Of a stretch of DNA of 64,000 nt, positions 39,798-56,621 are shown piece by piece. The stretch comes from Candidatus Bathyarchaeota archaeon (GTDB lineage Archaea > Thermoproteota > Bathyarchaeia > 40CM-2-53-6). The stretch covers positions 1,440,001 through 1,504,000 of the forward strand of contig CAVTBR010000001.1 in assembly GCA_963733055.1 (NCBI GenBank), read 5' to 3'. Under the pieces are notes generated by a model. The model was given only the letters and a program-made list of their open reading frames with translations, made no database searches and was not told where the DNA came from. A program made the translations under genes and the position numbers. How positions within the stretch are numbered: the first letter of the stretch is position 1; each line of letters begins with the position of its first letter.

Positions 39798-39802
39798 AGA
39801 TA

Positions 39803-39827: not shown

Positions 39828-40058
39828 CATGTATGTGCAAATAATCGTAGAAATTCTTAACGACAGTAGAATTGATTGGTAATTAACCGTCGAGATTGTT
39901 GTCTACTCAACATCCTGACTGTTCTATAGGTTACCACAATGGTGAGTCAGTCTGTATCAAATTTATGTGGAAACTTCACGAGCCAATGACGGCCTTTTGC
40001 GCGGTAGTGTCATGAAAAGTTCGCATGGTAGACTCGACATATACTTGCTGACGCTCAC

Positions 40059-40664
40059 TTGTCGGAATCTTTTCTCTCAAGAATGGAGGATAAACTCGGT
40101 ATCCACCAGCAGCCGCTCAAAGAACGGCTAGCCTTGGCATCCTACAGGCTCAGAACGCTTCGAAATAGGATGGAATCCAAACACCTGATGCTTCAAGCGC
40201 GTGACAAGGAACTATTCGACAAATGCCTGGCAGCGAAGACCTCAGGCGACTCCGCACGCGCCAGCCTGTACGCTGAGGAATGCGCGGAGACCAGGAAGAT
40301 TGCGAAAGTTATCCTTCAATGCGAATTAGCTGTTGAGCAGGTTACCTTCAAGCTTGAAACTGCTGAAATGGTTGGAGACTTGGCGTTCATGATGCACCCC
40401 ATCAAGAATGTGGTTAGCATGGTGGGGCAACAGATTCAACACATAATGCCAGAAGTATCTTTCGAACTCAACCAGATCAACGAAAGCCTCGATGGCGTAG
40501 TAACCAGCGCAGGCGAAGTAACCGAAACAGTATCCCCTGCAGGGTCATTCTCAGGTGAAGCCGAGAGCATACTAAGGGAAGCAGATGCGCTAGCCGAGCA
40601 GAAGATCAAATCTAGATTCCCTGAACTTCATCCGATTCCAACCGCCGAATCCACAAAAAACTGA
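40059..40664 (+). CDS. ESCRT-III/Snf7 (CdvB paralogue without C-terminal wH domain)
   Basis: RDKELFDKC..A....D..RASLYAEECAETRK, LAVEQV..KLET, IMPEVS.EL, EAESILREA...AE.KI...FP. Confidence 0.88.
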   Translation: MSESFLSRMEDKLGIHQQPLKERLALASYRLRTLRNRMESKHLMLQARDKELFDKCLAAKTSGDSARASLYAEECAETRKIAKVILQCELAVEQVTFKLETAEMVGDLAFMMHPIKNVVSMVGQQIQHIMPEVSFELNQINESLDGVVTSAGEVTETVSPAGSFSGEAESILREADALAEQKIKSRFPELHPIPTAESTKN

Positions 40665-40739
40665 CGCGAAAGCGTTTTGCTAGGTCTAGGCTTAACAGAC
40701 CTTTTGCTGATCGGACAAGAACTTACGGGAGTAGCGGAT

Positions 40740-41003
40740 TCATGTTCCTGTTGCTTTCTTGATGTTAGTTGGAGCCGGTATTTGCAATCGATTCAGGATA
40801 GGGCAGTCTACGTATAGGTCACACTGCGAACAAATCTTCGGGTCCGGCCCTTGTCCAGTGAATTCATTGGTGAGAGGCCAAGGCACGACTCCGGGACATT
40901 TTCCTGTCGTTTCGATGTACTGTAGAGCTTCTGCTCGTTGCTTCAGCCTAGTAAGGTATCGATCCTCTCTCAGCCGCTTGGTCGCTTCAAACCTAGATTG
41001 CAT
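40740..41003 (-). CDS. small Cys-rich protein, possibly a truncated gene
   Basis: CPG..CSQC..DCP; the upstream in-frame CKAC segment is interrupted by stops. Confidence 0.45.
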   Translation of the reverse strand: MQSRFEATKRLREDRYLTRLKQRAEALQYIETTGKCPGVVPWPLTNEFTGQGPDPKICSQCDLYVDCPILNRLQIPAPTNIKKATGT

Positions 41004-41792
41004 AGGAACCTGGACATTCTCGAAGCCTACCCTTAGTCCTATGAGACAAATTCAGCGAAATCCACGACCACTTCCGCTTCAAACCTCACGCAAACCTCTG
41101 TGTTCACACGCCTTGCATTCCACTGGAAGATCGAGAAAGAATGGGAGGCGCCCAGACGGACCCCCACCTAGAATCTGAATCCCTAGGGTTCCCATTGCTT
41201 AAATGACCTCAAACGGTCGCGATCTCTCAGTTTTCCGAACTCAAAACTTTAACCTCAAATTTCGAACGCTCCAATACCAAAGAAATTGCCATGGCTTACA
41301 CTCAAGTGAACCATCTCTGTTGCTTTCGCACATTGAGCAGACCAAGTTTCCTGACAATTACGATCGCCAGGAAAAATAGGGGAGTTTGCGGAAACTTTCG
41401 AAGATAGGCTCTTTTCAACCGCCTGAACCGACCCCACCGTCCACGAATGCCTTTACGAACTGGACTACTGGGTTGAAATCCCAAAGCGCCATCTTTGCGA
41501 CTGTTGCAACTTCATCAACCATTACGATCACCCCCATCCATTTTGTGTCAAAGAGGTCAGGAAGCATGTCAGGCACTGTCTTAACTCGAGGATGGATAAC
41601 AGGACTGAGAGACCCACGATGAGCTCGATCACTTGCATGCTTCTCTCACCAACACCGAATAATGCAGAGATCGAATTAGCTCAGTAGTCGCAGTATAGTT
41701 GCAACTTATGCATCAGACCTGTCGATTTGGGAAGTCACGAATTACTCTAGAACTAGAAAGCGAGCAAGTCTTTGGGAAGCCTTTACTGATCT

Positions 41793-41809
41793 TGCAACAG
41801 GATTGCAAC
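41793..41809 (+). promoter_or_regulatory. TGCAAC-N5-TGCAAC direct-repeat box, copy 1
   Basis: TGCAAC AGGAT TGCAAC; exact counterparts at 43393 and 44175. Confidence 0.65.
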
Positions 41810-42126
41810 GTCCACTGTAGATGTCTGGTGACATTAATCTCTGACAAGAATGGTTGGAGGTGAAAGGGAGCTATGACTTATGATGAGTACCGAAATCCTC
41901 TCAGACTTCGAACGCCGCTAGTGAGCCAAGATTACATCGATCTGCATCACGGTCAGTACAAAGGACCGTTCTATGTAAAGACCGATCCCAGACGCATCTA
42001 GAACACGAGCCTAAACCTTTCTAGAATCTCCACATTTTTCTTAACGAATCCTATGTCAGTTTGTGTCGGATCAATGCTAATCGAATTAGGTGCATTTGAT
42101 GGCGCTGCATTCTACCAGGTTTGGAG

Positions 42127-42744
42127 CTAACCTTTCTTATTGCAGAGCATGCATTCATATTTGCCTAAAGAATCCCTGGCGTGGGGAATGTTCCCTCTAT
42201 GTTGCTTGCAGGTCATATACTTGATTGACTTATTGATTATCTTCTCAAGCCAATCCTTAATTTCTGCTGATTTGGGGCTCAAGCGCGATACAATTCTATG
42301 AAGGTCTCTAGCTCCTAGATCGGTAATCGTATACTGCGTATAGAATTTGGTTTCTTCATTTCGGATAGATGCAATGAACTTTTTCTTCACAAGGCGGTTG
42401 TAGTACGTTTTAGATGTCTTCGTGCGATCAAAGGAGTAACTTAACCGAGGTTCTGATGCGATTCTCCATAATTGATATCTGTTGAAAGTAACTCCGAATG
42501 TCGGATCGGTCTGAACGGATTTGGGTAGAGTTCCCATGTTCGAGTAGGGTCCGTGCTGGGCATAGAACAGAACAGCGAGATAACGCACTTCCTCAAGTTT
42601 AGGATCCTTGTTAAGCACGTAGATGAAATCAGCTCTCTCCAAGACGTTCAGCACAAACTCTATTTCTTCAGTGGAAAGAGGTTGCGCATCGTCGTCATTG
42701 CCCTGCCCGGTGTCTGCAGGCATGTCAGGCATTTCTCCTGTCAA
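42127..42744 (-). CDS. wHTH-like protein with C-terminal Zn-binding motif
   Basis: YYNRLVKKKFI..YTITDLG wing; CKQH..CMLC. Confidence 0.6.
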   Translation of the reverse strand: MTGEMPDMPADTGQGNDDDAQPLSTEEIEFVLNVLERADFIYVLNKDPKLEEVRYLAVLFYAQHGPYSNMGTLPKSVQTDPTFGVTFNRYQLWRIASEPRLSYSFDRTKTSKTYYNRLVKKKFIASIRNEETKFYTQYTITDLGARDLHRIVSRLSPKSAEIKDWLEKIINKSIKYMTCKQHRGNIPHARDSLGKYECMLCNKKG

Positions 42745-42746
42745 GC

Positions 42747-43130
42747 TTACCTTCGCAAATACTTCTTGCTCAGTTTTCTAATAGCCGCCTTTAGTGACCG
42801 TTGTCTTGAGTCAGTTACTATCATTTCTACAAGACCTTCGACTTCCTTCCAGGTGGCTTTTTTTCCCAAGCCGAGTCGAGACGAGAGCTTGGGTATCTCC
42901 TCTCTATCCACATTGAACAGTTGATCGATCAGGCTGAAAATCAAGATGGCTCTGGCTTGGAGAGTAATTCCTTTTGGTACGTACTGATCCATAGAATCCA
43001 GGTGCGTCTCAACGCTGCGTATATCTTGCACCATGATACTTGATTGACTTAGGTCGGTTCCTCCTCGCAACATTCGATCATGCAACCTCCAAACCCGTAA
43101 AATGCTGGAGGCCTCATCAAGCATGCTCAC
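42747..43130 (-). CDS. hypothetical protein
   Basis: 127-aa ORF tightly packed with neighbours. Confidence 0.6.
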   Translation of the reverse strand: MSMLDEASSILRVWRLHDRMLRGGTDLSQSSIMVQDIRSVETHLDSMDQYVPKGITLQARAILIFSLIDQLFNVDREEIPKLSSRLGLGKKATWKEVEGLVEMIVTDSRQRSLKAAIRKLSKKYLRR

Positions 43131-43333
43131 GACTCAGAAACCTCAAGGCAATAGGGGAGATGGACGCCAATTAAGACATTCGGTGTCAGGAATCTCTCTA
43201 CCTGCAACGTTGCGACCATCATTGGGGGGCAATTATGCGAAATGTGTTCTAGACAGAACACGCAACCGCACCCTAGGCAGTCCACTTTGCCCTTTCTGCC
43301 GCACATTACACAAGCAGATTCCTTGAGCACCAT
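43127..43333 (-). CDS. small AN1/B-box-like zinc finger protein
   Basis: C-x2-C-x7-C-x2-C-x4-C-x2-H-x2-H-x-C. Confidence 0.65.
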   Translation of the reverse strand: MVLKESACVMCGRKGKVDCLGCGCVFCLEHISHNCPPMMVATLQVERFLTPNVLIGVHLPYCLEVSES

Positions 43334-43392
43334 CTTGTATCACCAAAAAATCAATTAGACTTCAGAAAATCTATACCCATAGTCGCAGAAAC

Positions 43393-43409
43393 GTTGCAAG
43401 GGCGTTGCA
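43393..43409 (-). promoter_or_regulatory. TGCAAC-N5-TGCAAC box, copy 2
   Basis: Plus strand GTTGCA AGGGC GTTGCA, 60 nt upstream of the 43333 start. Confidence 0.65.
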
Positions 43410-43574
43410 CCACGAAAGAACACGCGCTATGGTCGATCCTTTCAAATGATGAGTTCCTACGAACTGAACACAGCTAAATGGGAGAAGATGAGCTCATCTA
43501 CGCGATTCTGAGTAATCACTAGAGTTGTGATAGTTTTCGTCCTGCACTAACTAATCCTTGTACTGGTAACAGCG

Positions 43575-44273
43575 CTATTCCGGAGGTATGTTCAGCAGTT
43601 TAATTCTCTTCCATAGGGGAAGCAGGCACTTCACGCACTCGTTGCTCCAGTTAAGTGCAAGGTTATTTCGCTTTCCTTCAACACGCCAGATGATTAATTC
43701 AGATTGGTTGAGTTGCTCAAGAAGTCTCTTGAATTTGGGTCTGCGTATGGTCGTAAGTGGAATACCCGCTAAGTAAGCTAGTTCTGTGAGGTTTGTATAT
43801 TGTGTAGGATCTCTCCTTAGCTGGGCCAGAGCCATGCCCAGCCTATGCATTTGAGCATGGCCATACCATTGTGAGATAGCCATTGCAAGCTTTCTTGTTT
43901 CGACCTCATACTTCTTACGAGAGGCTACTTCGAGTAGAAGTGCATTCAATTCTTCTTTTACGATTTTTCGCAGAAGTCCCTTGACTATGATTGCGGACCG
44001 GAATTGCTTGTCAATTATCAAAGTTGAGCTGGATTTGGAATTATTGGAATCATTTTGCCCTGCATCTTGTTTGTCAATGGGATCCGATGGTCGATTTCTG
44101 TATCTGTCCCGGGTCGCAGCTTGCAATTTAGCCACCTTTACAATTATGTGGCTATTGGCGAGTTTACCATGAATGTTGCAGATTGGTTGCACAGCGCCCT
44201 TCGGCACACTTAGTTTTTGGCAAGACGACTTTGCGTCATACATCCATACATCTTTGCAACTAAACAGCAACAT
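43575..44273 (-). CDS. protein with C-terminal winged HTH; true start probably below 44175
   Basis: NLTELAYLAGIPLTTI..LLEQLNQSELIIWRVEGKRNNLALNW. Confidence 0.65.
   Translation of the reverse strand: MLLFSCKDVWMYDAKSSCQKLSVPKGAVQPICNIHGKLANSHIIVKVAKLQAATRDRYRNRPSDPIDKQDAGQNDSNNSKSSSTLIIDKQFRSAIIVKGLLRKIVKEELNALLLEVASRKKYEVETRKLAMAISQWYGHAQMHRLGMALAQLRRDPTQYTNLTELAYLAGIPLTTIRRPKFKRLLEQLNQSELIIWRVEGKRNNLALNWSNECVKCLLPLWKRIKLLNIPPE
44175..44191 (-). promoter_or_regulatory. TGCAAC-N5-TGCAAC box, copy 3
   Basis: Plus strand GTTGCA GATTG GTTGCA. Confidence 0.6.
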
Positions 44274-44525
44274 CCCTTCTAGATACTAGAATCAACTTAG
44301 CTTGCTCACGAGCGGAGGTGAAATTTGTCATGCTCTATTGCCCCGTTGACCCATTGTGCGTAGGTCTCATCTACCGGAAACGTCATTTCGTCCGGCAGTC
44401 CTACATGGATAATCGTGCACCGTACTCAGGCGAGACCGACTAGGTTCTCAGGTCATCTCGCAAGACACAAATCGCATAGTGGACTAGGCTGAGTATATGT
44501 GAAATAGCTGATAGCAGAATGCTTG

Positions 44526-46223
44526 CTAACTGAATGAAATGGTTGAATCCGGTTGCCCAAAGAGAACGTAGGCCGCCCAAGTCACGAGGTCAGTGGTCTT
44601 TGTCCCTTCTAGACGAGCAAGTTGAAGCGCTGTTCCAACAGACGTTCCCGAACATAGTCTTCTGTAAAAAGCGATAGCTATCTTTCTTGCCAAATCGTCA
44701 AAGACTGGCCATAGTGTTCCAACATAGGCTCTAGCCCCTGCCGACGTGAATGCCGAGGCTAAGCCTTCAATACGTGGCGTTACCATGAATTCGCTCACAT
44801 GGATCTCTTGATCTTCGATCCCCGTTTCGCACGCGTTCACGAAGACGACGGGAGAACCACCCAGAAGATTGTATATCTCATTGGCGCTCATGGGAATTGT
44901 TCCTCCAGAGCCATTATTTAGAAGTAGAAAAGCCTCCTTATGCTCCTTCAGATATCCAGCATGTCCAGAGTAGTGCACTATATCGTAGGCCTGAGCTAAT
45001 AACCGAGCCACAGTTTCCGGGGTGACCTTTTTCCCAGTGACAATATCGACCTCGATCTTGTCCGCCATCTCAGAAGTTTCGACATTGCGAGCTATTTCCT
45101 CTGCTTCTTCGCGAGCCTCGGGCAACGCTTTTCCAGTCACATTTTCGAGAGGATCCGCAAGGATTAGCATTTTCAGCTTCGCAGGCATCGTGGCTGGTAC
45201 TAAGTGCCTTTGTGGGAAAAACGGTCTGATGATAGTTCTACCCATGGAATACTGTCGGCACAGGAAATCCCGTCCGTCATGCAACAACTCCCAAGGAATC
45301 TTAGAATCATCGGTCGAGATGACCAGGTAGCCATCATGGGATCGCAAGTCAGCCCCTATATCCTTCGGAATCAAAGAAGCAAACAGCCCTTTCCCAAGTT
45401 CTTCTAGATTGGGAGGAGGGCCTTCGGATTCAAGCATCAGTTCACGATGGATACTTCGGTTTGCGAGTGAATCATGTAACGAAAGATCATATGTGATCCT
45501 GCCTTGTAGATTTTTAGCGAAGTGAGAGAGAAGTCTTCTGTTCAAACGCTTATGGAATGGTCCAACTGGGTTGGGAAGATCGCTTCTCTCATAAACGATA
45601 GCGAATCCATCTCGCGAGCTTTGCATTAGCAATTTTGTCATGAAAGCTCTCTCATGGACTCGATTCTGAATTCGTCGAGGTTTCCATTTTTCGCGATATG
45701 TCACGACGGTTTGAAACTGTTCTTTCGAAAGTCGCGAAAGTTCAGGGGCGCCTTTGGTAATCATCTGGCAAGCGCGGTCTCCGCGGTCTATTAGCTCGTC
45801 AGCCTCCCTCGCAGCTTTCCTCTCGACGTCGAGTAGAAGTGCAGTTAGGCCAACTAGCCCGGTAGCCTCGACGTCAAGAGTGCCCTGGACCGAAGTCTGG
45901 TTATCGCCAGTTCGACAATAAGTGAGTGTTGCAAGAGCCTGCTGAGACAATCCGAACTTATGCGCTGAGACGAGATACTTGGCTACGCCTTTTTCAGAGT
46001 CGCCCTCGATAATAATCAGTTGAACGGAGCCACGCCCTTTGAATCTCTTTTTTCCAACAAGCGGATTGACTATACTCCAGAATCCGTCCCGCTCCTTTAC
46101 CACATTCCACCTGTGATCCATCATTGTGTCAAGGATATCCCAGTTCTCACAAAAACAGCGAACAACATCGGGAGTCGTCTGGATGATTCTGCCACGTTCG
46201 ATATGGAGATGCAATCTCAACAC
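44526..46223 (-). CDS. CHAT-domain (caspase-like) protease with unknown N-terminal domain
   Basis: IPWELL, LILADP, LPEAREE, VHYSGHA (His), FVNACET (Cys), GLASAF..AGA, GTLWPV.D, WAAYVLFG. Confidence 0.9.
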   Translation of the reverse strand: MLRLHLHIERGRIIQTTPDVVRCFCENWDILDTMMDHRWNVVKERDGFWSIVNPLVGKKRFKGRGSVQLIIIEGDSEKGVAKYLVSAHKFGLSQQALATLTYCRTGDNQTSVQGTLDVEATGLVGLTALLLDVERKAAREADELIDRGDRACQMITKGAPELSRLSKEQFQTVVTYREKWKPRRIQNRVHERAFMTKLLMQSSRDGFAIVYERSDLPNPVGPFHKRLNRRLLSHFAKNLQGRITYDLSLHDSLANRSIHRELMLESEGPPPNLEELGKGLFASLIPKDIGADLRSHDGYLVISTDDSKIPWELLHDGRDFLCRQYSMGRTIIRPFFPQRHLVPATMPAKLKMLILADPLENVTGKALPEAREEAEEIARNVETSEMADKIEVDIVTGKKVTPETVARLLAQAYDIVHYSGHAGYLKEHKEAFLLLNNGSGGTIPMSANEIYNLLGGSPVVFVNACETGIEDQEIHVSEFMVTPRIEGLASAFTSAGARAYVGTLWPVFDDLARKIAIAFYRRLCSGTSVGTALQLARLEGTKTTDLVTWAAYVLFGQPDSTISFS

Positions 46224-46699
46224 TAGAGTTAACTCAATTACCGAGTAGGAATCCTATAAGTAAAGCGCCGCGGAGCCTCCACGACCGTTTCAAGAGTTAC
46301 CTAGTTGTTGGACGGAAAGTGGACCGCTTTCCATAGCTCATCTGAAAGGAAAGAAAGGGGAAGGGATGGAAGAGGGCAGTTATCAGGTCAGTAACGAATG
46401 GTCCTTGGGACGTAGTGGTTAGAAATATCTGGCACAGAAATCGTAGCGGTGTGGGTAGCTAGATCTATGTCCGCAAGTTGTCCTCCGATCATCCCTATTG
46501 TTCTAGACGGTAAGGGTCTGAACCGGTCCAACGGGTCGTACAAGTCATTTTCACTTCGCTTGGCAGTAACGGCGTATCCAAAGGACTAACCTTCTGTCGC
46601 AATCTAGATGCAAAGCAGTTGCTGAGCCGTTAGTTACCCTCCACTCAGCCATCATTCATAATTATGGTGCAACTTGAGCAACTAGATTCCTCAAAACGG

Positions 46700-46731
46700 A
46701 CTCTTGTATCTAAGAGAATGTCACTTCCATA
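46700..46731 (+). repeat. 32-bp direct repeat, copy 1, containing CTCTT-N6-AAGAG
   Basis: ACTCTTGTATCTAAGAGAATGTCACTTCCATA; 27/32 identical to 49711-49742. Confidence 0.8.
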
Positions 46732-46734
46732 CAG

Positions 46735-47460
46735 ATGTCAATGGGAGATGTTCACATGTTTGAACACAATTTGTTGACACTTGGAGCAGCATCATTTGGA
46801 GTCATTCAGTTTCTAGGTCAAACTCTCTTAGCCATCATTGTCTGCGCGGCTGTTATCGCGTTCGCGATTCTCTTTGCTGGGAAATTGGGGATCTTTGCGC
46901 GGAAAAGAGTTGAGGATTGGACAAGGGAGTTCACACCAAGGATTTCAAGAAGCCGTTCCACTGTTGGGAAAGCTACGAGAACTCATGCACAAACTTTCAC
47001 ATATGATCCTGATGCCAAAGAGGCAAATGCTTACAGTTCTGATAGAAATTTCAAAGTTTGGTCAAAGGCATTCCCTATAGAGAAACGAGTGTACGAAGAG
47101 TTCGATGGACTGTTAAGGTCAAATTCGCCAACACGATTTCTTCTTTTGAGTACTGATCCACCAACCCTCAAGATGACTCAATGGGGGCCGATGCCGATCG
47201 TAACCGCACTGTATCAAGTTGAAGATCTCGATAAGTTTCCAGAATACTATACAACGCTGCCCAAGAACGTTGTCGCTACAGCTCACAACCATCTGAAAGA
47301 CGCGAGTATTGCTGAGCATGATATCGAGATTTTCGAAAGCATTGATCGGCTCATAGGAATGAAGGTACATGTGATCGGCACGAAGATTGAACGCCGGATG
47401 TATTGCACGGGTGATGGTCCTGTTTTCACAGGACATGCGGCGGTTGGAGGTGAAAAGTGA
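46735..47460 (+). CDS. membrane-anchored JAB/JAMM-like metalloprotease ending in GG-EK
   Basis: N-terminal TM; VVATAHNHLKDASIAEHD resembles HxH..xxD; C-terminus HAAVGGEK. Confidence 0.5.
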   Translation: MSMGDVHMFEHNLLTLGAASFGVIQFLGQTLLAIIVCAAVIAFAILFAGKLGIFARKRVEDWTREFTPRISRSRSTVGKATRTHAQTFTYDPDAKEANAYSSDRNFKVWSKAFPIEKRVYEEFDGLLRSNSPTRFLLLSTDPPTLKMTQWGPMPIVTALYQVEDLDKFPEYYTTLPKNVVATAHNHLKDASIAEHDIEIFESIDRLIGMKVHVIGTKIERRMYCTGDGPVFTGHAAVGGEK

Positions 47461-47558
47461 ACCTTGGGAAATTGGCATGATGGAGAAGTCCCTCAACCTA
47501 GAGCGGAAACAAGTGGAATGAAATCAAGTGAACCACCAGATCTGGAGTATGCGTAACA

Positions 47559-47888
47559 ATGCGATACCAGTATCGGTATATTGCCGGACGTCGTTTCATC
47601 TACCTAGAAGACTATCACCTGCCATCTACATGTCAGTGCGACTTCACCCACTCCACCATTTCGCTTCTGGTTGATGTTGATGGTGACAAGCCGCTCTTGT
47701 ACGTTCCAACCATGTTGCAGTGCTTTCGTGGCACTTCATTCCATCTCAATCAACCTGCTCCAAGCTATCTCGGCCGTGGTTGGAAGTGGGCGTGCTGGGA
47801 GATTGAGGATTGGAGCTACAATAGGTACGGGGGAGAGGCGCTGGTCAACCTCATAGACAACTACTTCACAAACTATTGGAGAACATGA
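47559..47888 (+). CDS. prokaryotic E2/UBC-like protein (family E-like)
   Basis: FIYLEDYHLP..ISLLV..LYVP..L..FH...GWKWACW...W pattern; stop overlaps the E1 start. Confidence 0.55.
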   Translation: MRYQYRYIAGRRFIYLEDYHLPSTCQCDFTHSTISLLVDVDGDKPLLYVPTMLQCFRGTSFHLNQPAPSYLGRGWKWACWEIEDWSYNRYGGEALVNLIDNYFTNYWRT

Positions 47889-49144
47889 ATTTGGAATCGA
47901 GAGTAAGTTATGAGTCATGGGCATTGCCTGTATACTTAGAGATAGTAGACCATTTCGAGAGAAACAAACCAAACGAATCATTTGGCGTAGGCTTAGCGGA
48001 GGAATACCCAGACCCATACAGACCTGGCTGGGTTTGGCACAAAGTAAGGAAAGTCGTAATTCCCGCAGATGAGGACTATCAGGCTCAGAACGGAGTATAC
48101 ATCAAACTGAAACGCAGCTTCATCGACAGGCTGATCGAAACTGCCGAAGAGACTAAGCTTCAACCGAAAGTATTTGATCACTGCCAACCCATCGATGTTC
48201 TAAGTCAGACAGATTTTGATACAATGAGGAAAGTCGAAGCTTATTACAAGAACACGGTGACAGGATCTTACAACAGATACCACCGATTCTTTAGACTCAC
48301 CGAAACTGGAACAGAAATTGTGCCATGGAGCGTTGATGACGGAACTAACAATAGGCAGATTCTTGCGTACGGGGAGGAAACCCAACACCGAATTAGAACC
48401 TCATCAGTTCTTATCGCCGGCGTAGGGGGAATCGGCTGGAAGTGCGGCACCGATTCGCTACTCAAGGGAATCAGCAAGTTTGGCTTAGTTGATCCGGACA
48501 CGATTGAGAGATCAAACCTCTCAAGAATCCCATTACCTGAAACGCAGACTGGACAATACAAGGTAACACAATTGAAGAGAATAATGGAAGACCTACGGCC
48601 AAATGTAATATGCGACACGTGGTCCTCGAAGGTTCAGGACATCCCCAAAGATCAGCTGTCAAATTACGATGTCTGGATTGTCACTACTGACAACGTCAAA
48701 TCACGCGAGTATCTCAATCGAACGTCATTTGAGCTAGGAATTCCGACAATACAGGTCGGAGCCAGCCTCGAGAATGGCAACAGGGCTGTAAGTTGTCGAA
48801 CAGTAGTCCCTGGACGTACGCCTCAATGCTACTCGTGTTGGAAGGACTACACGCTCGAACAAATGCAGCGTGACTACTATACCCCGGAACAACTGGCCAG
48901 GATAAAGCAATCAAACCATCCGTACAATCTTCCAAGCCCAGTTCCCAGCATCGTAGACGTCAACTCGCTCGCTGCTGGACTCACTGGCGAAGCATTATTC
49001 AGAGTGCTGACAAACCAGAAGATAATCCCGAAAATATACGTGGACCTCAAGACAATGGAAACAAACATTTACGAGGGTAAGCAAGATCCCAATTGCAAAG
49101 TTTGCTCTGATTCCAATTTTTTCCTATCGAATGAACCCAACTGA
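47885..49144 (+). CDS. degenerate JAB domain fused to ThiF/E1-like adenylyltransferase
   Basis: N-terminal NE..VVIP.DEDY..FDHCQP..LSQTD. E1 RQ, IAGVGGIG, VDPD.IE.SNLSR, G.YKV, TTDN..SR, CYSC, CKVC. Confidence 0.85.
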   Translation: MNLESRVSYESWALPVYLEIVDHFERNKPNESFGVGLAEEYPDPYRPGWVWHKVRKVVIPADEDYQAQNGVYIKLKRSFIDRLIETAEETKLQPKVFDHCQPIDVLSQTDFDTMRKVEAYYKNTVTGSYNRYHRFFRLTETGTEIVPWSVDDGTNNRQILAYGEETQHRIRTSSVLIAGVGGIGWKCGTDSLLKGISKFGLVDPDTIERSNLSRIPLPETQTGQYKVTQLKRIMEDLRPNVICDTWSSKVQDIPKDQLSNYDVWIVTTDNVKSREYLNRTSFELGIPTIQVGASLENGNRAVSCRTVVPGRTPQCYSCWKDYTLEQMQRDYYTPEQLARIKQSNHPYNLPSPVPSIVDVNSLAAGLTGEALFRVLTNQKIIPKIYVDLKTMETNIYEGKQDPNCKVCSDSNFFLSNEPN

Positions 49145-49319
49145 TCGACTAAGTGCTTCTTGGCCGAGATACTAGATTGTGGTGTCTCCTCTTTCAGTAA
49201 CTTCATTCTCTTTACGTTATCGGTACTACTATCCTCTGATGATTCGACTGCCTGCAGAGGTGACCAGTAACTTCAGTGGCTCTGATAAGCGCCCGCCTGT
49301 TTCTCGATTCGAATCCATG

Positions 49320-49664
49320 TCACCTGAATCTCCTGCTGAGAGTGAATATGCGAGTCAAAACGGGGATAGTTATCAGCTCGGTGTGTACGAAGGGGATTAG
49401 TAGCGGGAATAGGTTGCTGTAGCCTAGGGTCCTAGCTAAGGCATATGATGTTAGAGGATCAATAACTATCTCGTTTGCAACCCAGACCGCTAATGCCACC
49501 AAGCCTAATTTCTTGTGTGTTTTGAGTTCGTTCAGCAGTTTTCGTGGATCTAATCTTGAGGTCACGCAATCCAAAATGACGTCTTTTCTCGAGTTCATGA
49601 ATGCGTGATTGGGTGAAAGACGAATTGGGTCAAACGTCGCAGTCGTGGAGCACGCGTGTTGCAT
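49320..49664 (-). CDS. small hypothetical membrane protein
   Basis: Hydrophobic LGLVALAVWVANEIVI; start uncertain. Confidence 0.45.
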   Translation of the reverse strand: MQHACSTTATFDPIRLSPNHAFMNSRKDVILDCVTSRLDPRKLLNELKTHKKLGLVALAVWVANEIVIDPLTSYALARTLGYSNLFPLLIPFVHTELITIPVLTRIFTLSRRFR

Positions 49665-49674
49665 TCACGTTGCG
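49658..49674 (-). promoter_or_regulatory. TGCAAC-N5-TGCAAC box, copy 4 (one mismatch)
   Basis: Plus strand GTTGCA TTCAC GTTGCG. Confidence 0.5.
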
Positions 49675-49710
49675 TTAGAGCAATTTGGTTAACGAAACTT
49701 GCCATATTGA

Positions 49711-49742
49711 ACTCTTGAAACTAAGAGAATGTGGCGTCCATA
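49711..49742 (+). repeat. 32-bp direct repeat, copy 2
   Basis: ACTCTTGAAACTAAGAGAATGTGGCGTCCATA. Confidence 0.8.
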
Positions 49743-49932
49743 GCACTCTACGGAGAAGTTTGCATGTCCGGATTCGGACCTTTTGGAGAACGTGAGAATG
49801 AACCGCTCGATAGCAACTGCTACACTCTTTGTCGGTGGGGCATAGGTTGGACGGAATCCATCAGGTCACGAAGCGTTCTGGAAGAACCCGTCTATCCCCT
49901 CTCGCGTAAAAACGAAGATGGAGGGAATCATA

Positions 49933-50208
49933 ATGTTTGAAGATGTGATTCCTTACAACTTGATTGGAATTGCGATTATCGTCACTTTCTGTTACTTGGG
50001 AATGAAGACAAGGAACGCACTCATGCAGCTTCTCAGTTTCATTATTGTCATCTTGGTTGGAGCCTCACTTGCAGGTTTCTTTGATCTCGTTCAGTCCGTT
50101 GTTGCTATAGGATTCGCAGGTGTTGCACTGGTGATACTGTTGGCGTTAGTCCTCGTCTACATGCTCGTGTCCAAGATTGGTAGTTGGATGAGAAGTGCAC
50201 CACCTTGA
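49933..50208 (+). CDS. small 3-TM membrane protein
   Basis: GGAGG upstream of ATG 49933; three hydrophobic segments. Confidence 0.65.
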   Translation: MFEDVIPYNLIGIAIIVTFCYLGMKTRNALMQLLSFIIVILVGASLAGFFDLVQSVVAIGFAGVALVILLALVLVYMLVSKIGSWMRSAPP

Positions 50209-50330
50209 ACGAAGAAGAGAGAAAACGCAGATTGCTCTGGATCATGATTGGCTTCTTAGTGCTAGTTGCAGGTGTTCTCATCTACGTCGCTAGGAGACTT
50301 CGTAGGCAGTCTGCTCAAAGATATGATTAA
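50205..50330 (+). CDS. unannotated 41-aa single-TM protein
   Basis: TTG overlaps the previous stop (TTGA); MNEEERKRRLLWIMIGFLVLVAGVLIYVARRLRRQSAQRYD. Confidence 0.6.
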   Translation: MNEEERKRRLLWIMIGFLVLVAGVLIYVARRLRRQSAQRYD

Positions 50331-50436
50331 CTTAAACGGTAACCGTTGAACGTCCTCACAGATCGCAGAATTCTAGATTCCCTCCTTGGAAGATGTGAGT
50401 CGTTTTCAGGCGGTCATCGATGCGGGGGGTGAGAGA

Positions 50437-52123
50437 TTATGGTAAAGTCACTGGTGAGAAAGACAAGGCGGGGTCCCCATAGAGGATCATTGCGGCCCAC
50501 GAAACGTCTCCCTCTCTTTTGCTTTCATTGAAAACCTTCTCTCTCGCAGCGCGCATTGCCTCCCCGACTGATACTCCTTCAATGATGTTCTCATAGAAGG
50601 TTGATGCTAACATGGCGGCCCGCGAATCCCGGACCTCCCACAGAGAACCGACGAAGCACATCACTCCTCCATCAATCAGAGTCTTGGCGAAATCCGCTTC
50701 GGATTTCTCAGATTTCTTGGATTTCTTAAGTTCTTGGCTTCCTTCACGTGCAGAGGAGCACGCGTTTCGCGAAAAATATCACTGGTGGATTCTCGCCGAG
50801 AGATTGCGCGATTTCGCTCCGGTAGCATGGAATCCAGCCCTCTCCGAACTCTTTGGGAAACATCAAGTAGCTATTCTCTGGCTTGTGAGCGTCAAAGTGG
50901 CCGTGACCTGCAAAGTGAACGACGTCAAAAACCCCAGTATCCAATGCTGAGAGGAATCTCATCTTCGTCGCTTCAGACTGTTCCCAGACTGTGATATCTA
51001 TCTTCGACCTCGTTCGACCACTCTTCAATGCACTTTCTATCAACTTGACCTCCGTGAGCGCCTCTGGGAGATTACTGGTAGGGTCGGCGATGAATAGGAG
51101 TTTGACTCTGTCTCTTTGAACTCTGGGTTTGGTCTTCTTAGCACCCTTGCCTAAAATTAGTCGGCCAATAGCATATCTAGTCCCAAGAAAATGTTCACCG
51201 TCGTTAAGCAGTTCCCAGGGCAAATGGAACAACTCTGGTGTCGCTGTTACGCGCAAGTGACCACTGCCTTGCTTGAGCTCTTCTCTGACTGTCTTCGGAA
51301 GAAGGAGGAACATGTCTTTGCCTACCTTTTCTAATCGCGAGAGCGCGTGGGGGTGAATTTGAGCATCGTGAAGACTTCGCACACCAGGATCAGAATAAGT
51401 GTGCAAGTGCAAATCTTGGAGTAGGACCTGCCATGTCTGTGGTTCAAGTCTGACATCTGCGGTGAATTGGTTGACCACGACATCAATTGTAGCAGTGGCT
51501 TCTGATCTCTGCAGCACTAGTGCGAAATTGTAGAGGGGCGCTTTTGCGGCAGGAGTGAGTGTGATATTTGTGACACTCAACGGTTGATGATCTGCTCCTA
51601 GCACGGTTATATCGGGGCGCGTTACCATGCTGCCAAGGTAATTCTGCGGGTTCTTTGAGACCTCTTCTAGCGCTTTGCAGAACCAATCCATTGTAGTTTG
51701 AACTGCTCGATCAATTCTGGCACGAAGTTTCTTGATCACCGTCTCAATGACAGGATTGGCATCCACTCTGGCGATTCCTCTGAGGATCATGTCACCACTC
51801 GCCATTTTCATCACGATATGGTCGACCTCCACCGCCCGAACGCTCCAAAGTCCGAGTTTTGCGTTTACAAGCCACTTAACAGTAAACTCACTCTCGGATT
51901 CCTCCGTAGCCAAATATCGAAAATCTACATGTATTCCTTCGAGTTCACACTCGAATCGTTTATCCTCAGGAGAGCCAATCGGCTTGAATCCTTTCGCTTC
52001 GCCGCAAGCGACGCCCGCCTTGTCCAAAATATCTAAACGACCGCGTCCCAGCACTTGCTTTGTAATGTCAAAATCTGCCTTCAGTTTGCGTGGTGTGTCA
52101 ACTAACGGGTACTTAGATCCCAA
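50437..52123 (-). CDS. second CHAT-domain protease, +1 frameshift just before the catalytic Cys
   Basis: LPWELL, FIADP, VHFAGHG. Removing one A near 50766 restores IFFANACSS and joins VGSLWEV.D..WAAMILYGDP. Confidence 0.85.
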
Positions 52124-52409
52124 GAGTGTGAGCCTGAACTATCCTAGCGATAGTTTGTATCCGGTTAGAAAGCTTTCTTTCCGTCATCCGCTTTCGGTTG
52201 TTTCAAGCTAGTCTCGTCTCTGAAAGAGAATAGATGCGACATTGAGGAGACAACGGCGAACACTATCAAAAACACTGCATCCCCAATACCAACTAAGGGA
52301 TTTCGAGTGGGAACTCTCGGAGGTAAACGAATCGGAGTGAGTGGTCGGTTGGTCTTGGATTATGGCTATGGACTCTGGCCTGGCTCTTCAACGTCAGAGA
52401 GGGTTTCTC

Positions 52410-52588
52410 CAAGAAAAGACGACATAATCCCACCACGAATGCACCTAGACCCTCTGCCCGACGGCAACTCGAAAGGGAAGGTAGTCACCACGGCAGACTT
52501 TGAGCAGATGCTCACAGAATACTACAACGTCTGGGGATGGGACGACCAAGGAAGCCCAAGGCGTCGACAATTCACGAACTCGGGCTAA
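52410..52588 (+). pseudogene. C-terminal fragment of aldehyde:ferredoxin oxidoreductase
   Basis: RKDDIIPPRM..DPLPDGNSKGKVV...FEQMLTEYYNVWGWDDQGSP. Confidence 0.75.
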
Positions 52589-52673
52589 CCGGATTGGTAA
52601 CATAACACTAGGTACGCTAATAACTGCAAGTCACTATCGCTAACTCCGCCTAGACGTCGATTCTTCATCCGCA

Positions 52674-54092
52674 TTAGTAGTTCTTGGGCACTCCGTACAA
52701 CTTACCCAGGAAGCTGGTGTCGATTGTTCGACTGGCGTACACGGCGAGGGCGAGGGACCAGAGTCGGTCGTCGTGGGTTCCGTCCGGGTGGCTGAATTGT
52801 AACTGGCCGGTTTTTGTTGTTTGGAAGGTTTCTACGTTGATTTCTGCGATTAGATCTGCGTCATAATATAGAGCGAGGCCTTTGGTCTGCATGAGTTGTT
52901 TCATGTGGCTGAGCATCTCCTGCTTGGACGGCAGGGTCAAGGTAATCCCTTCGATGGTAGATCGTATTCGGGCTTCTTTCATATCTTCGACTATATATTC
53001 TCCGACGCCAGTTTGATCGCAAAACGTCTTCTCGACTCTATTCAGTTTGTCGCAGATGATCTTCACATATCCGATTACGCTAGCGTAGGGTGTCTCGAGA
53101 TCAAAGCGGACTATTCCCGCTACCTTGACAAGGTCTTGGTCTAGCTGAACGACTGCGACCACCGAGTGGTCGTTGTGTTTGCCGAAATCGAGGCCGACGA
53201 AGTATCGGCCCATCTTTGCCCTAATAGTCTTGGTCCAGTCGTCGGTTAAGGGGCTCAGGTCGCTGTCGATGCATTGGGTGATTAGTTTCATGGGGAAGTA
53301 GGATGTTTGGTCGTCGACGAATTCGGCTAAGTATTCGCGTCGGTAGCGTTCAGCTGGCGTTCGTTTCTCCATCTCTTGAATGAACTCGCGCGTGGTCAGC
53401 CCAGCCTTGATTACGTCATCAATCGTCACCCTGTGCACTCTGAAGGTGGAATCTCGCGTGAACTTGTAGAAGACCGAGTCTTTGCTCCAGGGGGTTGAGC
53501 TTGCGATCAGCGTCCCATTGGTTGTTTGGAGCATAGGGAAGAGGACGTTGTAGAAGACGGTTTGGTCGTCGGCGAAGAATGAGGCTTCATCGGCGACGAG
53601 TAAGTTTGCCGCGTACCCCCGAAGCAAATTTACTGAGCAGGGTAGCGCGACGAGCTTCGAACCGTTCTTCAGGCTAATGGTGGTGCGTTTGATTTGTTGA
53701 AATCGTTCGCGGCGTCGTCGGGTGGGTATGAGTGAGATTTGTTCTTGGATGCGGTCCATTACGATCATTGATTGTCGGAGGCCGGGGGCGACTATGAGGC
53801 TGGTTGTGTTTGGGTTCGTGAGGGCGTAGTGGATCATGCGTATGGCGAGGGTGGTTGTCTTGCCGGATTGGCGGGGGAAGACGACGACGATTCGTTTGCT
53901 GGGGTCGGTTAGTAGTTTGGCTTGGTAGGGGGTCGGCTGGAAGCTTAGCCATTCGGTCGCGAATTTGACAGGGTCGGAGGGAACGGTTTCGGGTTTTGCG
54001 GCCGGTAGGTGACGGCTACGTTTCTCTGCTTCCTGAAGCGTTTTCTTGCCCTTTCTGATCAGTTTGTTTAAGCTGTTCTTTGAGCTGCTCAA
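52674..54092 (-). CDS. terminase large subunit
   Basis: PTPYQ, PRQSGKTT, LVADEA, SSTP, REYLAEF, GLDFG...D, DQTGVG, HDD. Confidence 0.92.
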   Translation of the reverse strand: MSSSKNSLNKLIRKGKKTLQEAEKRSRHLPAAKPETVPSDPVKFATEWLSFQPTPYQAKLLTDPSKRIVVVFPRQSGKTTTLAIRMIHYALTNPNTTSLIVAPGLRQSMIVMDRIQEQISLIPTRRRRERFQQIKRTTISLKNGSKLVALPCSVNLLRGYAANLLVADEASFFADDQTVFYNVLFPMLQTTNGTLIASSTPWSKDSVFYKFTRDSTFRVHRVTIDDVIKAGLTTREFIQEMEKRTPAERYRREYLAEFVDDQTSYFPMKLITQCIDSDLSPLTDDWTKTIRAKMGRYFVGLDFGKHNDHSVVAVVQLDQDLVKVAGIVRFDLETPYASVIGYVKIICDKLNRVEKTFCDQTGVGEYIVEDMKEARIRSTIEGITLTLPSKQEMLSHMKQLMQTKGLALYYDADLIAEINVETFQTTKTGQLQFSHPDGTHDDRLWSLALAVYASRTIDTSFLGKLYGVPKNY

Positions 54093-54703
54093 TTAGTTGA
54101 TTCAACTCGTCCACGTGGGGTTGGATGTAGGCTCGTTCGTAACCCGCTAAGATCGCTTCCCCTGCTCGCGATAGGGCGCTGGCGGCTTTCATGGCGTCTA
54201 TTCGGGACCCAGCCTTCTCCGCCAACGCCTCGTTCTCACTCAACTCCTGAGCCTCCTTCAACATGCCAACCACAATCCAGTACAGCCCCTCGCAGTTCCT
54301 TCACCGAGTCAACCCGTCGCGGCCGCGGGGGCTCCTTTTCCTCCTCTTCACGCCTCTCCTCCCGTTCCCCCGGGATTCGCACGGACCCCGCAATCCGCAC
54401 CCCACCCTCCGACCCTGGCATGGTCCCTTCCGCCGGAAGCACCGCTACCCTGAGCTGAAGCTGCTTCGACAACAAATCCAGCCGCCCAAGGGTGTGGCTC
54501 ACCCTTTGAGAGGGGGTGTGGCTCACCCTCTCAAACATCCACTCAGCCAAAACCTCACGCACAAGCTTCGCGACCGTGGTTCGGCGGGCCACAGCATACG
54601 CCTCAAGAAACCGTTTCAGCACCGGATCCATACGGGTTCTAACAAGCGGGTTACCCTTACCCGGCAGAGCAAGCCACCTCCAAACCTTCCGAAAGCACAT
54701 CAA
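54016..54703 (-). CDS. RHH N-terminus plus helical C-terminus, candidate small terminase; apparently frameshifted near 54273
   Basis: VRTRMDPVLKRFLEAYA..TTVAKLVREVLAEW. Two overlapping ORFs directly upstream of and overlapping terL. Confidence 0.5.
54490..54535. repeat. 16-bp direct repeat (24-bp period) interlocked with a 10-bp-stem hairpin
   Basis: GGGTGTGGCTCACCCT at 54490 and 54514; TTTGAGAGGG (54505) pairs with CCCTCTCAAA (54526). Confidence 0.85.
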
Positions 54704-54854: not shown

Positions 54855-56010
54855 ATGCTGCGTAAGCATTTTGTTTTGATGGTTGCTACATTATCTTTTG
54901 TCATGCTTGGTCTGGGGCTGTTTGGTTATCCGCCAATATCCAGGTACGTCATCCTGGATCTCAATCTCTCGCATACTGAGTCTGGGTATATCACTTCGGT
55001 CTTCGCGCTCACGTTCGCTTTGATGCAGGTGCCTGGCGGGTACTTGGCTGATAGGTTTGGGGGAGCCAAGACTCTCATGGTCTTCGCGGCGGTGGTGGGT
55101 GTGTCTCCCTTCATCTTCATCGTAGGGGATAGTTTTGTGATGGCCCTGGTCTTTCGTGCTCTGGCTGGCGGTGCGTGTGGTGTAACGTTTCCTTCCGCAG
55201 TTCGTGTCCTCTCATCCTGGTTCTCGGAGAGGGAGGTGGGTTCGGCTATGAGCGTTTTTGGGTTGGGTTATGGGATGTCCCAGATCGTTTCTTCCGCGTT
55301 CTTACCCTTACTGATTCTGGGCGCAGGATTGGAGGCCTCCCCTCATCTTTACCGCGCTGTTTTCTCTTCTCGTGATGGCGTTAGCCGTCTTTCCTGCTCG
55401 GTGGTCTTCTCCGATTGAGTCTTCGGTAAGTGTGAAGGTTGATGTTAGGGGGTTATTTACGCGTAATATGGTCGCTCTGGTTCTTCCTAATTTTGCCTCG
55501 CTCGCAGTAGTGGTGGGTATCTTTGCGTGGACGCCAGCATTTCTTACTTCGATTTTACATCTGTCGGATGAGTATGCTGGAATCATTCTGGGGTCGATCG
55601 GTGTGGCTAACATGTTGGGCGCCTATGCGGGCGGCTTGGCGAATAAGTGGTTGGGAAAGCGTCGGACCATTGCCCTGTCCATGATCCTAATGACGGGTTT
55701 CGCTGTGTTGTTGGGTACGGCAAATTCAGGTTTGGTTGCCGCGGTGTGGATTTCAGGCATTGGTTTCACGAGCATGTTGTATTTCGCAGCGGTCTTTGGC
55801 TTGATTCCTTACGCAGCGAAGCAGGGTCGTTCAGTAGCCGGCATAAGTTTTGGTGTCTTCAACATGTTGAGCAACATCGGGACCTTTGTCTCGCCAATTA
55901 TCGGGGGGTATATCTTAGACTCGACCGGGAATTTCTTCTTAGGATTTGCCTCAATAGGAAGCATCGGGGTTCTCGGAGTGCTCGGAGCAATAGTTCTCCG
56001 CACAGACTAG
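54855..56010 (+). CDS. MFS transporter, frameshift near 55326
   Basis: GGYLADRFG motif A; about 12 TM helices across two overlapping ORFs. Confidence 0.85.
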
Positions 56011-56036: not shown

Positions 56037-56621
56037 CTACGTAGTCTTGTCTGATTCGTATGTTATCAGGGTCTTTTCTTCAAGTGTGTCTTGCAGTTTT
56101 GAGATAGCTCTGTGAACCTCCGCCTCTTTCTTGGCGCCGGTACAAACGAGTTTTCCGCTTGAGAAGATTAGTATGACTGTTTTGGGGTCGTCCATTCGGT
56201 AGATAAGGCCGGGGAATTGTTCGGGTTCATACATGGTGCGTTTCAGTGAGTAGGTTGCCTTTTCCAAATCAATATGGCCGCCTAAACCTACCGACGCTAC
56301 CATATTCTGAATCTGAATCTCAGGCTTACCCAGAATGACGATCCCGTTACGGTTGAGCTCGTCCACAACCTTCATGACGGCCTTGCGAGCCTGCCGCTCC
56401 GACTTCGCCCCCGTGCAGACCATTTTACCCGAGCTGAAGATCAAGGTGGTGGCCTTCGGCTTCTTCAATCGATATACTAAACCAGGAAATTGTTCAGGCC
56501 GATACTCAACGCCAGGGAACACGCGCACAATAGAGTTCAGGTCAATATTCTGATGGAGCGTACCTGTCGCGACCACATTCTCGATGTTGATGAACGTTCT
56601 CCTTCCGACGCGAGATGCCAC
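56037..56621 (-). CDS. tbp: TATA-box binding protein
   Basis: Two repeats: IENVVA..YRPEQFPGL..LIFSSGKMVCTGAK and IQNMVA..YEPEQFPGL..LIFSSGKLVCTGAK. Confidence 0.98.
   Translation of the reverse strand: MASRVGRRTFINIENVVATGTLHQNIDLNSIVRVFPGVEYRPEQFPGLVYRLKKPKATTLIFSSGKMVCTGAKSERQARKAVMKVVDELNRNGIVILGKPEIQIQNMVASVGLGGHIDLEKATYSLKRTMYEPEQFPGLIYRMDDPKTVILIFSSGKLVCTGAKKEAEVHRAISKLQDTLEEKTLITYESDKTT

Follow-up and report, generated by a model that had tools for sequence, protein, structure and literature searches.

A Bub-related operon on archaeal mobile DNA with a conserved micropeptide gene at the place of the ubiquitin-like protein: a candidate E1–E2 peptide-tagging system

Gene content of the operon

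In a 64,000-nt stretch of a Candidatus Bathyarchaeota genome (GCA_963733055.1, contig CAVTBR010000001.1, positions 1,440,001 to 1,504,000; hereafter the window), the list of open reading frames (ORFs) contains three co-directional ORFs at 46735–49144, where the G+C content is 0.45–0.48 vs. ~0.51 around. They encode a membrane-anchored protein of the MPN/JAB type (ORF1), a minimal E2-like conjugating enzyme (ORF2), and a JAB-like domain fused to an E1-like activating enzyme (ORF3). A conserved ORF of 30 codons, here called the micro-ORF, lies between ORF1 and ORF2. What is new here is a Bub-related operon with a conserved micropeptide gene at the place of the ubiquitin-like protein (Ubl). The genes, folds, residue conservation, coding signature of the peptide, and model of its tail in the E1 described below are computed results. 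An earlier reading of the DNA letters (the original prediction) had listed the three ORFs, all of which are present, and had described an E1/E2/JAB operon lacking a beta-grasp gene, in agreement with our results: neither the operon nor the 21 neighbouring ORFs checked in four related loci included one. Its inventory was right for the three ORFs and overlooked the micro-ORF at 47464–47556. The features of the operon are as follows.

46735..47460, + strand: ORF1, membrane-anchored MPN/JAB protein, 241 amino acids (aa); probable start at 46756 (Met8, the database version)
47446..47453, + strand: Shine-Dalgarno (SD) sequence GGAGGTGA of the micro-ORF, inside the last codons of ORF1; encodes the tail 'GGE'
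47464..47556, + strand: micro-ORF, candidate modifier and E1 substrate; TTG start, 30 codons, TAA stop
47559..47888, + strand: ORF2, minimal UBC-fold E2, 109 aa; closest to BubB
47876..49144, + strand: ORF3, ThiF-type E1 with a JAB-like N-terminal domain; start at 47891 in the database version

The micro-ORF

An all-against-all comparison of small ORFs across the related loci flagged the 98-bp gap between ORF1 and ORF2. The micro-ORF was present in 7/7 loci covering this gap, and its last 10 codons were also found at the edge of an additional locus (L004). The encoded peptides are 26–33 residues long (30 in the window copy), acidic, Pro-rich, and probably disordered. Residues H5, D6, P25, L27, Y29, and A30 are invariant; every copy ends in PP[DE]L[EVI]YA directly before the stop codon, a [WF]-H-D motif is found near the N-terminus, and a basic residue (Lys or Arg) is kept 10–11 residues before the C-terminus. 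A protein atlas search with the peptide gave no usable match. The copy in locus L002, which starts with ATG, has been annotated as a hypothetical protein by a public source and belongs to a cluster of 3.

Of the pairwise differences in the last 11 codons, 60 fell on the first, 40 on the second, and 118 on the third codon position. Where codon pairs differed, 78 were synonymous and 69 non-synonymous in the frame of the micro-ORF, vs. 16/147 and 17/153 after shifting to the two other frames. Judged from this clear coding signature, the micro-ORF is a gene under selection at the amino-acid level. Its translation signals are tightly packed: the upstream motif GGAGG(T/C)G is invariant in 7/7 loci and lies within the last codons of ORF1 in 6/7, and the stop codon precedes the E2 start by 2–8 nt or overlaps it. 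An RNA element as the cause of the intergenic conservation was considered and rejected, since no Rfam family matches the region between ORF1 and ORF2 and its consensus RNA fold is negligible (−2.0 kcal/mol, 4 pairs).

The C-terminal tail of ORF1

The original prediction had taken ORF1 for the modifier, on account of its GG-containing tail, and had placed it in the Ubl position; that position, directly upstream of the E2 gene, is held by the micro-ORF. The check that it had proposed, conservation of the GG-xx tail among homologues, went against it in the 22 tails compared. Past a conserved ...GPVF the ORF1 tail varies in both length and sequence. The closest relative ends in GG-E and the window copy in GG-EK; GG[ED] was found in 5/22, Gly occurs among the last four residues in about 14/22, and none of the last four residues is Gly in 7/22. 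The last residues were modelled at a predicted local distance difference test score (pLDDT) below 50.

At the nucleotide level, the window ending V-G-G-E-K-stop (GTT GGA GGT GAA AAG TGA) is the translated GGAGGTGA region. The tails EVR-stop and RR-stop of relatives are the SD motif in the other two frames, and GK-stop tails overlap the start of the micro-ORF. Altogether, 20/22 ORF1 tails correspond either to the GGAGGTGA motif read in one of three frames or to an overlapping micro-ORF start, and because they fit such read-outs, the terminal GG of ORF1 is best regarded as a by-product of the ribosome-binding site.

ORF1, a membrane-anchored MPN protein

The model of ORF1, built from an alignment of 22 sequences, showed a long hydrophobic helix at residues 10–51 (hydropathy peak 2.96 at 31–49), a basic, disordered linker after it, and a folded domain at ~105–233 with pLDDT above 90 (MPN region 110–228). 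A structure search (VIA) with residues 110–228 gave 5cw3_B as best match (Z 9.4, root-mean-square deviation (rmsd) 2.9, 113 aligned residues), along with Rpn11 (Z 9.0), PfJAMM1 of P. furiosus (8.9), and residues 4–147 of BubCD (8.4). All 50 entries among the matches listed were MPN proteins or MPN-containing complexes (Z 9.4–7.8), the top Foldseek matches were all MPN as well, and the best structural matches included the Rpn8–Rpn11 and BRCC36–Abraxas2 pairs. H184, H186, D204, and H212 do not vary among the 22 relatives, and 20/22 have D196, ten residues past the second His; H184-x-H186 together with D196 fits a JAMM zinc site. The transmembrane anchor and JAMM-like HxH...D domain of the original prediction are thereby borne out.

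The remainder of a JAMM active site was not recovered: in the 22 sequences no acidic residue is invariant or nearly so at 103–183, where a catalytic Glu was sought, and the position three residues before D196, that of the Ser in SxxD, is variable. Because neither residue is kept, ORF1 is not a canonical MPN+ enzyme. By sequence the family is small and isolated. A profile search of 1.84 billion protein representatives returned 19, all from its own family and none from known JAB families, and JAB matches by sequence were found in 0/22 members; family searches by sequence with ORF1 and ORF2 gave 0 matches in Pfam, PADLOC, and PHROGs. The model predicts that ORF1 is a membrane-tethered protein with its MPN/JAB domain in the cytoplasm, since basic residues follow the helix.

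ORF2, an E2 closest to BubB

ORF2 was modelled with a UBC fold at pLDDT 88. Its best structural match was Citrobacter BubB (VIA 9eav_D, Z 9.5, rmsd 2.8, 102/109 residues aligned), with about forty ordinary E2s at Z 5–6; Foldseek returned 9eae_C (probability 0.99, TM-score 0.61). The JAB and UBC folds that the original prediction had suggested looking for in ORF1 and ORF2 were thus found by both Foldseek and VIA. The 16 relatives of ORF2 are stand-alone proteins of 109–119 aa in which C55, H62, N64, K76, and C79 are invariant. C79, the Cys to which the original prediction had pointed (in WACW), lies within WKWAC, and H62-x-N64 forms an HxN motif like that of classical E2s. At the level of sequence families, Prok-E2_E was the top Pfam family, below threshold (2/16 relatives, best E 0.11), and a search of PDB entries with the ORF2 profile did not pick up any E2.

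By the offset of the aligned ranges (model 1–108 to chain 254–361), which is approximate and no residue-level superposition, the catalytic S333 of BubB falls at C79/W80 of ORF2, and the Ser-x-His of the BubB type is not conserved in this region of the 16 sequences. Because the aligned ranges show a constant offset, ORF2 appears, within that approximation, to have a Cys where BubB has a Ser. A second invariant Cys, C55, lies in L[RQ]C in the loop after strand 4 and could be a structural residue, a disulfide partner, or a relay residue.

ORF3, a JAB-like domain fused to an E1

The E1 half of ORF3 matched ThiF at 3e-27, and 16/16 relatives matched ThiF too. In these 16 sequences the nucleotide site is invariant (Gly-rich loop, R217, K229, and T271-D272-N273), as are both CxxC pairs, T336, and Y350. 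The absence of a Cys between the two CxxC motifs, read from the window copy in the original prediction, extends to the relatives compared (0 Cys in 16/16). Column CxxC+14 aligned weakly (8.8 bits) with the Cys in the PMCT motif of UBA3 and is occupied by Tyr, Phe, or Leu in the ORF3 family. Even in sequences with as little as 42% identity, the catalytic and nucleotide-site residues of both E1 and E2 do not change.

Profile comparisons placed the ORF3 family next to two known enzymes. The match to Citrobacter BubCD (E 2e-11) ran in one stretch over query 55–360 and took in both domains, and that to MccB (E 2e-20) covered query 131–404. Together with the BubB fold match of ORF2, the BubCD match upholds the kinship with Bub put forward in the original prediction. 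The alignment to PADLOC E1-E2 models was limited to ORF3 ~140–300.

In the N-terminal 150 residues of ORF3, E34, H102-C-Q104, S110, and D113 are invariant (16 sequences), so that the JAMM-like motif has an invariant Gln104 in place of the second His (HxQ). The nearest clusters in a feature search were Prok-JAB (0.89/0.88, a sub-threshold lead). Pfam JAB matched 0/16 relatives, and a search of the PDB with a profile of the N-terminal domain (5 sequences) brought up no JAB. Taken from the motif, the sub-threshold feature match, and the BubCD-like architecture, the domain is putatively JAB-like. An hhalign comparison of this domain with the ORF1 family gave nothing (probability 0.4), and the two JAB-like domains of the operon are for that reason not detectably related by sequence.

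Predicted complex of the E1 domain with the peptide

The E1 domain (two copies), the micro-ORF peptide family, and ATP were modelled together. The E1–peptide model scored 0.72 (runs 0.72, 0.72, and 0.76), vs. 0.02 for the best of 3 controls; the mark applied to this score is reached by 116/157 solved complexes and 2/215 mismatched pairs. Contact agreement between runs was at least 49%, and the pLDDT of the partner at least 47. Confident contacts joined peptide residues 23–30 (EPPDLEYA) to the Gly-rich loop, the TDN motif, and neighbouring residues of the E1 (182, 184–187, 270–274, 277, 293–297, 304–306, 308, 319, 322–323, 356, 358, 363, and 366). Many of these residues are family invariants, and the region is the site where a Ubl tail is adenylated. 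The supported model thus places the C-terminal eight residues of the micropeptide in the adenylation site of the E1.

Comparison with known systems

Type I Bub (6E.1) provides the closest comparison. According to the available text of the preprint describing it (10.1101/2024.11.21.623953), genes are ordered BubAB, BubCD, BubE, the Ubl directly precedes the E2 in a fusion protein, from which the JAB domain releases it, and BubCD is a JAB–E1 fusion without a crossover Cys, in which Y370 is the sole invariant loop residue and is needed for conjugation. The same text gives BubB a catalytic Ser (S333) with nearby invariant H335 and D299, and describes BubE as a DUF6527 Ser-His peptidase (10.1101/2024.11.21.623953). 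The operon in the window resembles this system in its putative JAB-type N-terminal domain fused to an E1 of the homodimer type with an invariant Tyr and no crossover Cys, in its minimal E2 with BubB as best structural match, in the order modifier, E2, JAB–E1, with the micro-ORF at the BubA position, in having a hydrophobically anchored peptidase in the set, and in its location on mobile or defence-associated DNA. Unlike Type I Bub, it has no beta-grasp Ubl or Ubl–E2 fusion but a separate 30-codon gene ending in YA, its E2 has an invariant Cys instead of the BubB Ser and lacks Ser-x-His, and the JAB motif of ORF3 is HxQ. Furthermore, the host is an archaeon, and instead of DUF6527/BubE a transmembrane-anchored MPN protein is encoded upstream; a genome-wide search for BubE (PF20137) gave nothing over cut-off (best E 0.046, with an in-frame stop) and nothing among the operon ORFs. 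The E1 and E2 encoded here have their nearest relatives, by structure and by sequence, among the Bub proteins, while several defining Bub features are absent.

Type II CBASS (an antiphage signalling system based on cyclic oligonucleotides) likewise has E1/E2/JAB enzymes (Cap2/Cap3) without a beta-grasp modifier, and PDB 7to3, of the Cap2/Cap3 system, was among the matches of both the ORF3 profile and the ORF2 model. In the available text of its description (10.1101/2022.03.31.486616), the E1 domain of Cap2 binds its CD-NTase, a non-Ubl polypeptide, by the disordered C-terminus and adenylates it there, and the E. cloacae CD-NTase construct sequence ends in an aromatic residue followed by Ala. 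In that source, as in the model above, an E1 site takes the disordered C-terminal tail of a polypeptide that is not a Ubl. In contrast to Type II CBASS, E1 and E2 are separate proteins here, the E1 lacks a catalytic Cys, and the candidate substrate is a free micropeptide rather than an enzyme; no CD-NTase or effector families were found among the operon or flanking ORFs.

Three further systems share single features with the operon. Pup, of the actinobacterial Pup/PafA system, is a short, acidic, disordered tag joined via its C-terminal end. It has no sequence relation to the micropeptide and is ligated through a side-chain carboxylate by a glutamine-synthetase-like ligase, with no E1, E2, or JAB. 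In MccB/MccA (PDB 3h5a and others), a ThiF-type enzyme with an extra N-terminal domain adenylates the C-terminus of a ribosomally made micropeptide; unlike in the operon, the product is a peptidyl-nucleotide, neither E2 nor JAB takes part, and MccA has 7 residues and ends in Asn. The archaeal SAMP (small archaeal modifier protein)/UbaA/JAMM system and the Caldiarchaeum Ub-E1-E2-RING-Rpn11 operon have in common with it the archaeal host, an E1, and a JAMM-fold protein, and PfJAMM1 and Caldiarchaeum Rpn11 were among the structural matches of ORF1. In contrast, the modifiers of both are beta-grasp proteins with a terminal GG, their E1s depend on a Cys, and neither has a micropeptide gene or a transmembrane-anchored MPN protein. 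The literature searched, in the available text of the Bub preprint (its supplementary operon tables lying outside that text), the companion Ubl preprint, and Iyer et al. 2006 (PMC1779556) among others, does not describe such an operon or micropeptide partner.

Proposed mechanism

We assign a rough probability of 0.55 to the reading of this locus as a four-gene conjugation operon (transmembrane JAB protein, micropeptide, E2, JAB-like–E1), a divergent, element-borne archaeal relative of Type I Bub in which a peptide of ~30 residues replaces the beta-grasp Ubl. More tentative, and a little short of even odds, is the fuller proposal of an E1–E2 cascade on archaeal mobile elements that conjugates a ~30-residue, non-beta-grasp micropeptide ending in Tyr-Ala, that is, a Pup-like tag attached by ubiquitin-like enzymology, with an E1 Tyr oxyester, an E2 Cys thioester, and a membrane-tethered MPN partner.

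From the conserved residues and the models we infer each chemical step as well as the targets, the role of ORF1, and a function in conflict between mobile element or virus and host. The E1 domain of ORF3 would bind the peptide tail EPPDLEYA and adenylate the terminal Ala. As ORF3 has no crossover Cys, the acyl group would then pass via Tyr350 (as proposed for Y370 of BubCD) or straight to the E2, where the peptide would be carried on Cys79 as a thioester before ending up on target amines. The peptide would be made with its final C-terminus and need no precursor cutting, because the micro-ORF ends at its own stop codon; this would fit the change to HxQ in the JAB-like domain of ORF3. The membrane-tethered MPN domain of ORF1 may remove or edit conjugates, the role of BubE in Bub. 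Alternatively, ORF1 may dock the E1 at the membrane, or may pair with the MPN-like domain of ORF3 in the manner of Rpn8–Rpn11 or BRCC36–Abraxas2.

Alternative interpretations

Several observations weigh against conjugation of the micropeptide. Only 8 micro-ORF peptide sequences are available, all from related elements, so that conservation of the peptide is confounded with relatedness. The window copy starts with TTG, 10 nt after the SD sequence, and the copy in L001 (5547–5624) keeps the conserved residues, but its aligned start codon reads ACG, against ATG, GTG, or TTG in the others, which may mean that it starts non-canonically, contains a sequencing error, or is dead. The RNA run records list none for this stretch. 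The terminal Ala is preceded by Tyr, unlike the Gly of BubA and most Ubls. In the complex model the N-terminal 22 residues of the peptide were not placed and the fold of the partner itself is uncertain; the use of our own alignments and the ATP riding along leave the calibration of the score rough, and the pass may partly reflect the model's memory of E1–tail complexes. The equivalences of C79 with S333 of BubB and of Y350 with Y370 of BubCD are offsets of aligned ranges, and the JAB-like call for the N-terminal domain of ORF3 is taken from motif, sub-threshold feature match, and architecture. Finally, elsewhere the 2.88-Mb genome contains nine ThiS-family matches that pass the Pfam cut-off, and these host genes could supply the modifier instead. 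In such a scheme E1 and E2 would activate a host beta-grasp modifier (a ThiS/MoaD-type SAMP), and the micropeptide would be an adaptor, inhibitor, or regulator occupying the E1 site. The original prediction had already offered a host modifier as an alternative, and SAMP pathways are present in the host, as indicated by two further E1-like genes. However, none of the ThiS matches is in the window, the peptide gene stays with the operon on different mobile elements (7/7 loci), and it is the invariant C-terminus of that peptide that was modelled in the adenylation site. We regard a host modifier as unlikely, if the least unlikely of the alternatives.

Slightly less likely is a maturation pathway like those of ribosomally synthesised and post-translationally modified peptides (RiPPs), in which the E1-like enzyme would activate the C-terminus of the peptide for cyclisation onto the Lys/Arg at −10, or so that a small molecule could be attached, as by MccB with MccA, and ORF1 would be a membrane-side processing peptidase. 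The tiny, substrate-sized gene, the MccB profile match of ORF3, the basic residue kept near the C-terminus, and the membrane-anchored metallopeptidase-fold protein encoded alongside would all suit such a pathway, but it leaves unexplained a BubB-like E2 with an invariant Cys and HxN motif, and we know of no role for an E2 in RiPP pathways. In addition, no transporter or immunity gene is conserved beside the operon, and the peptide ends in Ala, whereas MccB chemistry needs a C-terminal Asn. A further reading, which we hold to be somewhat less probable again, treats the micro-ORF as a leader for translational coupling or regulation only, with E1 and E2 acting on another substrate or the system decaying. 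The SD sequence and start overlapping the end of ORF1 and the stop abutting the E2 start are as in coupling leaders, and the altered HxQ motif of ORF3 and the missing conserved Glu of ORF1 could speak of decay. Against a leader stand the amino-acid-level selection in the micro-ORF's own frame, with its six invariant residues, and the want of conserved RNA structure or an Rfam match; against decay stands the invariance of the E1 and E2 catalytic and nucleotide-site residues. The proposal of ORF1 as modifier, cut after its GG and joined to targets via its C-terminus so as to tether them to the membrane, is by far the least probable. It would account for the GG-EK and GG-E ends of the window copy and its closest relative and for the frequent terminal Gly, and the available text on Type II CBASS describes a substrate that is likewise no Ubl, but the tail is variable and often without a terminal Gly, nearly all tails are read-outs of translation signals, the last residues were modelled at low confidence, and ORF1 is not at the Ubl position. 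Conjugation of the micropeptide in a Bub-related operon remains the reading that we prefer.

Distribution and genomic context

The operon is rare and is borne by mobile elements. It is single-copy in the 2.88-Mb genome, and a pattern scan of metagenome contigs found relatives at 9 loci; the pattern scan of 185,579 species genomes found none, that of viral contigs found none, and the E2 (ORF2) profile had no match in 400 other genomes sampled from the phylum. Flanks were available for L001, L002, L003, and L006 (the sequences of L007 and L008 start within the E1, past the gap between ORF1 and ORF2). In these four loci the gene order is kept, adjoining a HerA-type ATPase, a Zn-ribbon/winged helix-turn-helix (HTH) protein, and small membrane proteins, and the flank of L006 additionally holds a tyrosine integrase. 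Because these flanks hold element-type genes, we conclude that the operon moves on mobile elements, in line with the original prediction, which had called it probably antiviral or element-encoded. No match to Multi_ubiq over cut-off was found in the whole genome. One soil-metagenome DNA run contained 0.29 of the words sampled from the window.

Other features of the window are the following.

49918..50208, + strand: small multi-pass membrane protein, 96 aa, possibly associated with the operon; homologue in L006
44526–46223, − strand: CHAT-domain protein, upstream flank of the operon
50437–50664, − strand: CHAT-domain ORF, 75 aa, separate piece; profile positions 225–289
50744–52123, − strand: CHAT-domain ORF, 459 aa, downstream flank; profile positions 11–167
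38974–39534: ParB-HTH protein (family match)
52674–54092: lone terminase large subunit (PHROG 7e-47)
56037–56621: TATA-binding protein (Pfam 4e-65)
Within the window: TrmB regulator (family match)
23521–25521: AAA_15/AAA_23 ATPase, low-GC cluster
25872–28250: SIR2_2 domain fused to an AAA_21/AAA_15 ATPase, low-GC cluster
28142–29071: ORF with a weak HNH match, low-GC cluster

The TATA-binding protein and the TrmB regulator mark the window as archaeal. The homologue of the 49918–50208 protein also lies downstream of the operon in L006 (7548–7829; 49% over 75 aa, E 3e-13). Another small membrane protein, judged alike by eye, is common to L001 (7254–7550) and L006 (7858–8130). Both may be accessory parts of the system or belong to the element backbone. 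Proteins with a CHAT (caspase-like) domain are encoded on both sides of the operon; the downstream one, which had a weak PADLOC match to BovA (5e-06), is in two pieces, which suggests a frameshift or a decayed gene.

The region 38974–54703 comprises the ParB-HTH protein, several ORFs without family, the operon, and the lone terminase, with a G+C content of 0.45–0.48 at 42–50 kb, and is probably an integrated element or its remnant. No tRNA genes or integrase were found in the 64,000-nt window, and a scan of the window for direct repeats bounding an island gave only short, chance-like families, none of them convincing. Scans for sigma-70 promoters and terminators stayed at shuffle level, their models not being meaningful for an archaeon.

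Elsewhere in the window, an exact 16-nt direct repeat, GGGTGTGGCTCACCCT, occurs in two copies 24 nt apart at 54490–54529, each nearly palindromic, inside or at the end of the ORF at 54236–54703 (− strand). The low-GC (0.45) cluster at 23521–29071 resembles a defence locus. A major facilitator superfamily (MFS) transporter is spread over two overlapping ORFs on the + strand (54855–55418, profile 3–154, and 55372–56010, profile 190–345), probably as a result of a frameshift or assembly error.

Implications

The case carries a lesson for the annotation of such operons: what looks like a GG tail on ORF1 is an artefact that arises where translation signals overlap, and the better candidate for the modifier is a gene shorter than those that routine gene calling picks up. 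So small a system could be reconstituted with a synthetic peptide and is thus directly testable. To our knowledge, what is conjugated in the E1/E2 systems described to date is either a beta-grasp modifier or, in CBASS, a folded enzyme joined by its tail. If the reading given here is true, the beta-grasp fold would be dispensable for tagging by E1 and E2, the sole candidate substrate being a free peptide of 30 residues. The Bub lineage would then extend to archaea, and the combination of a BubCD-like E1 with a Cys-bearing E2 would represent a natural intermediate between Cys-based and Ser/Tyr-based chemistry.

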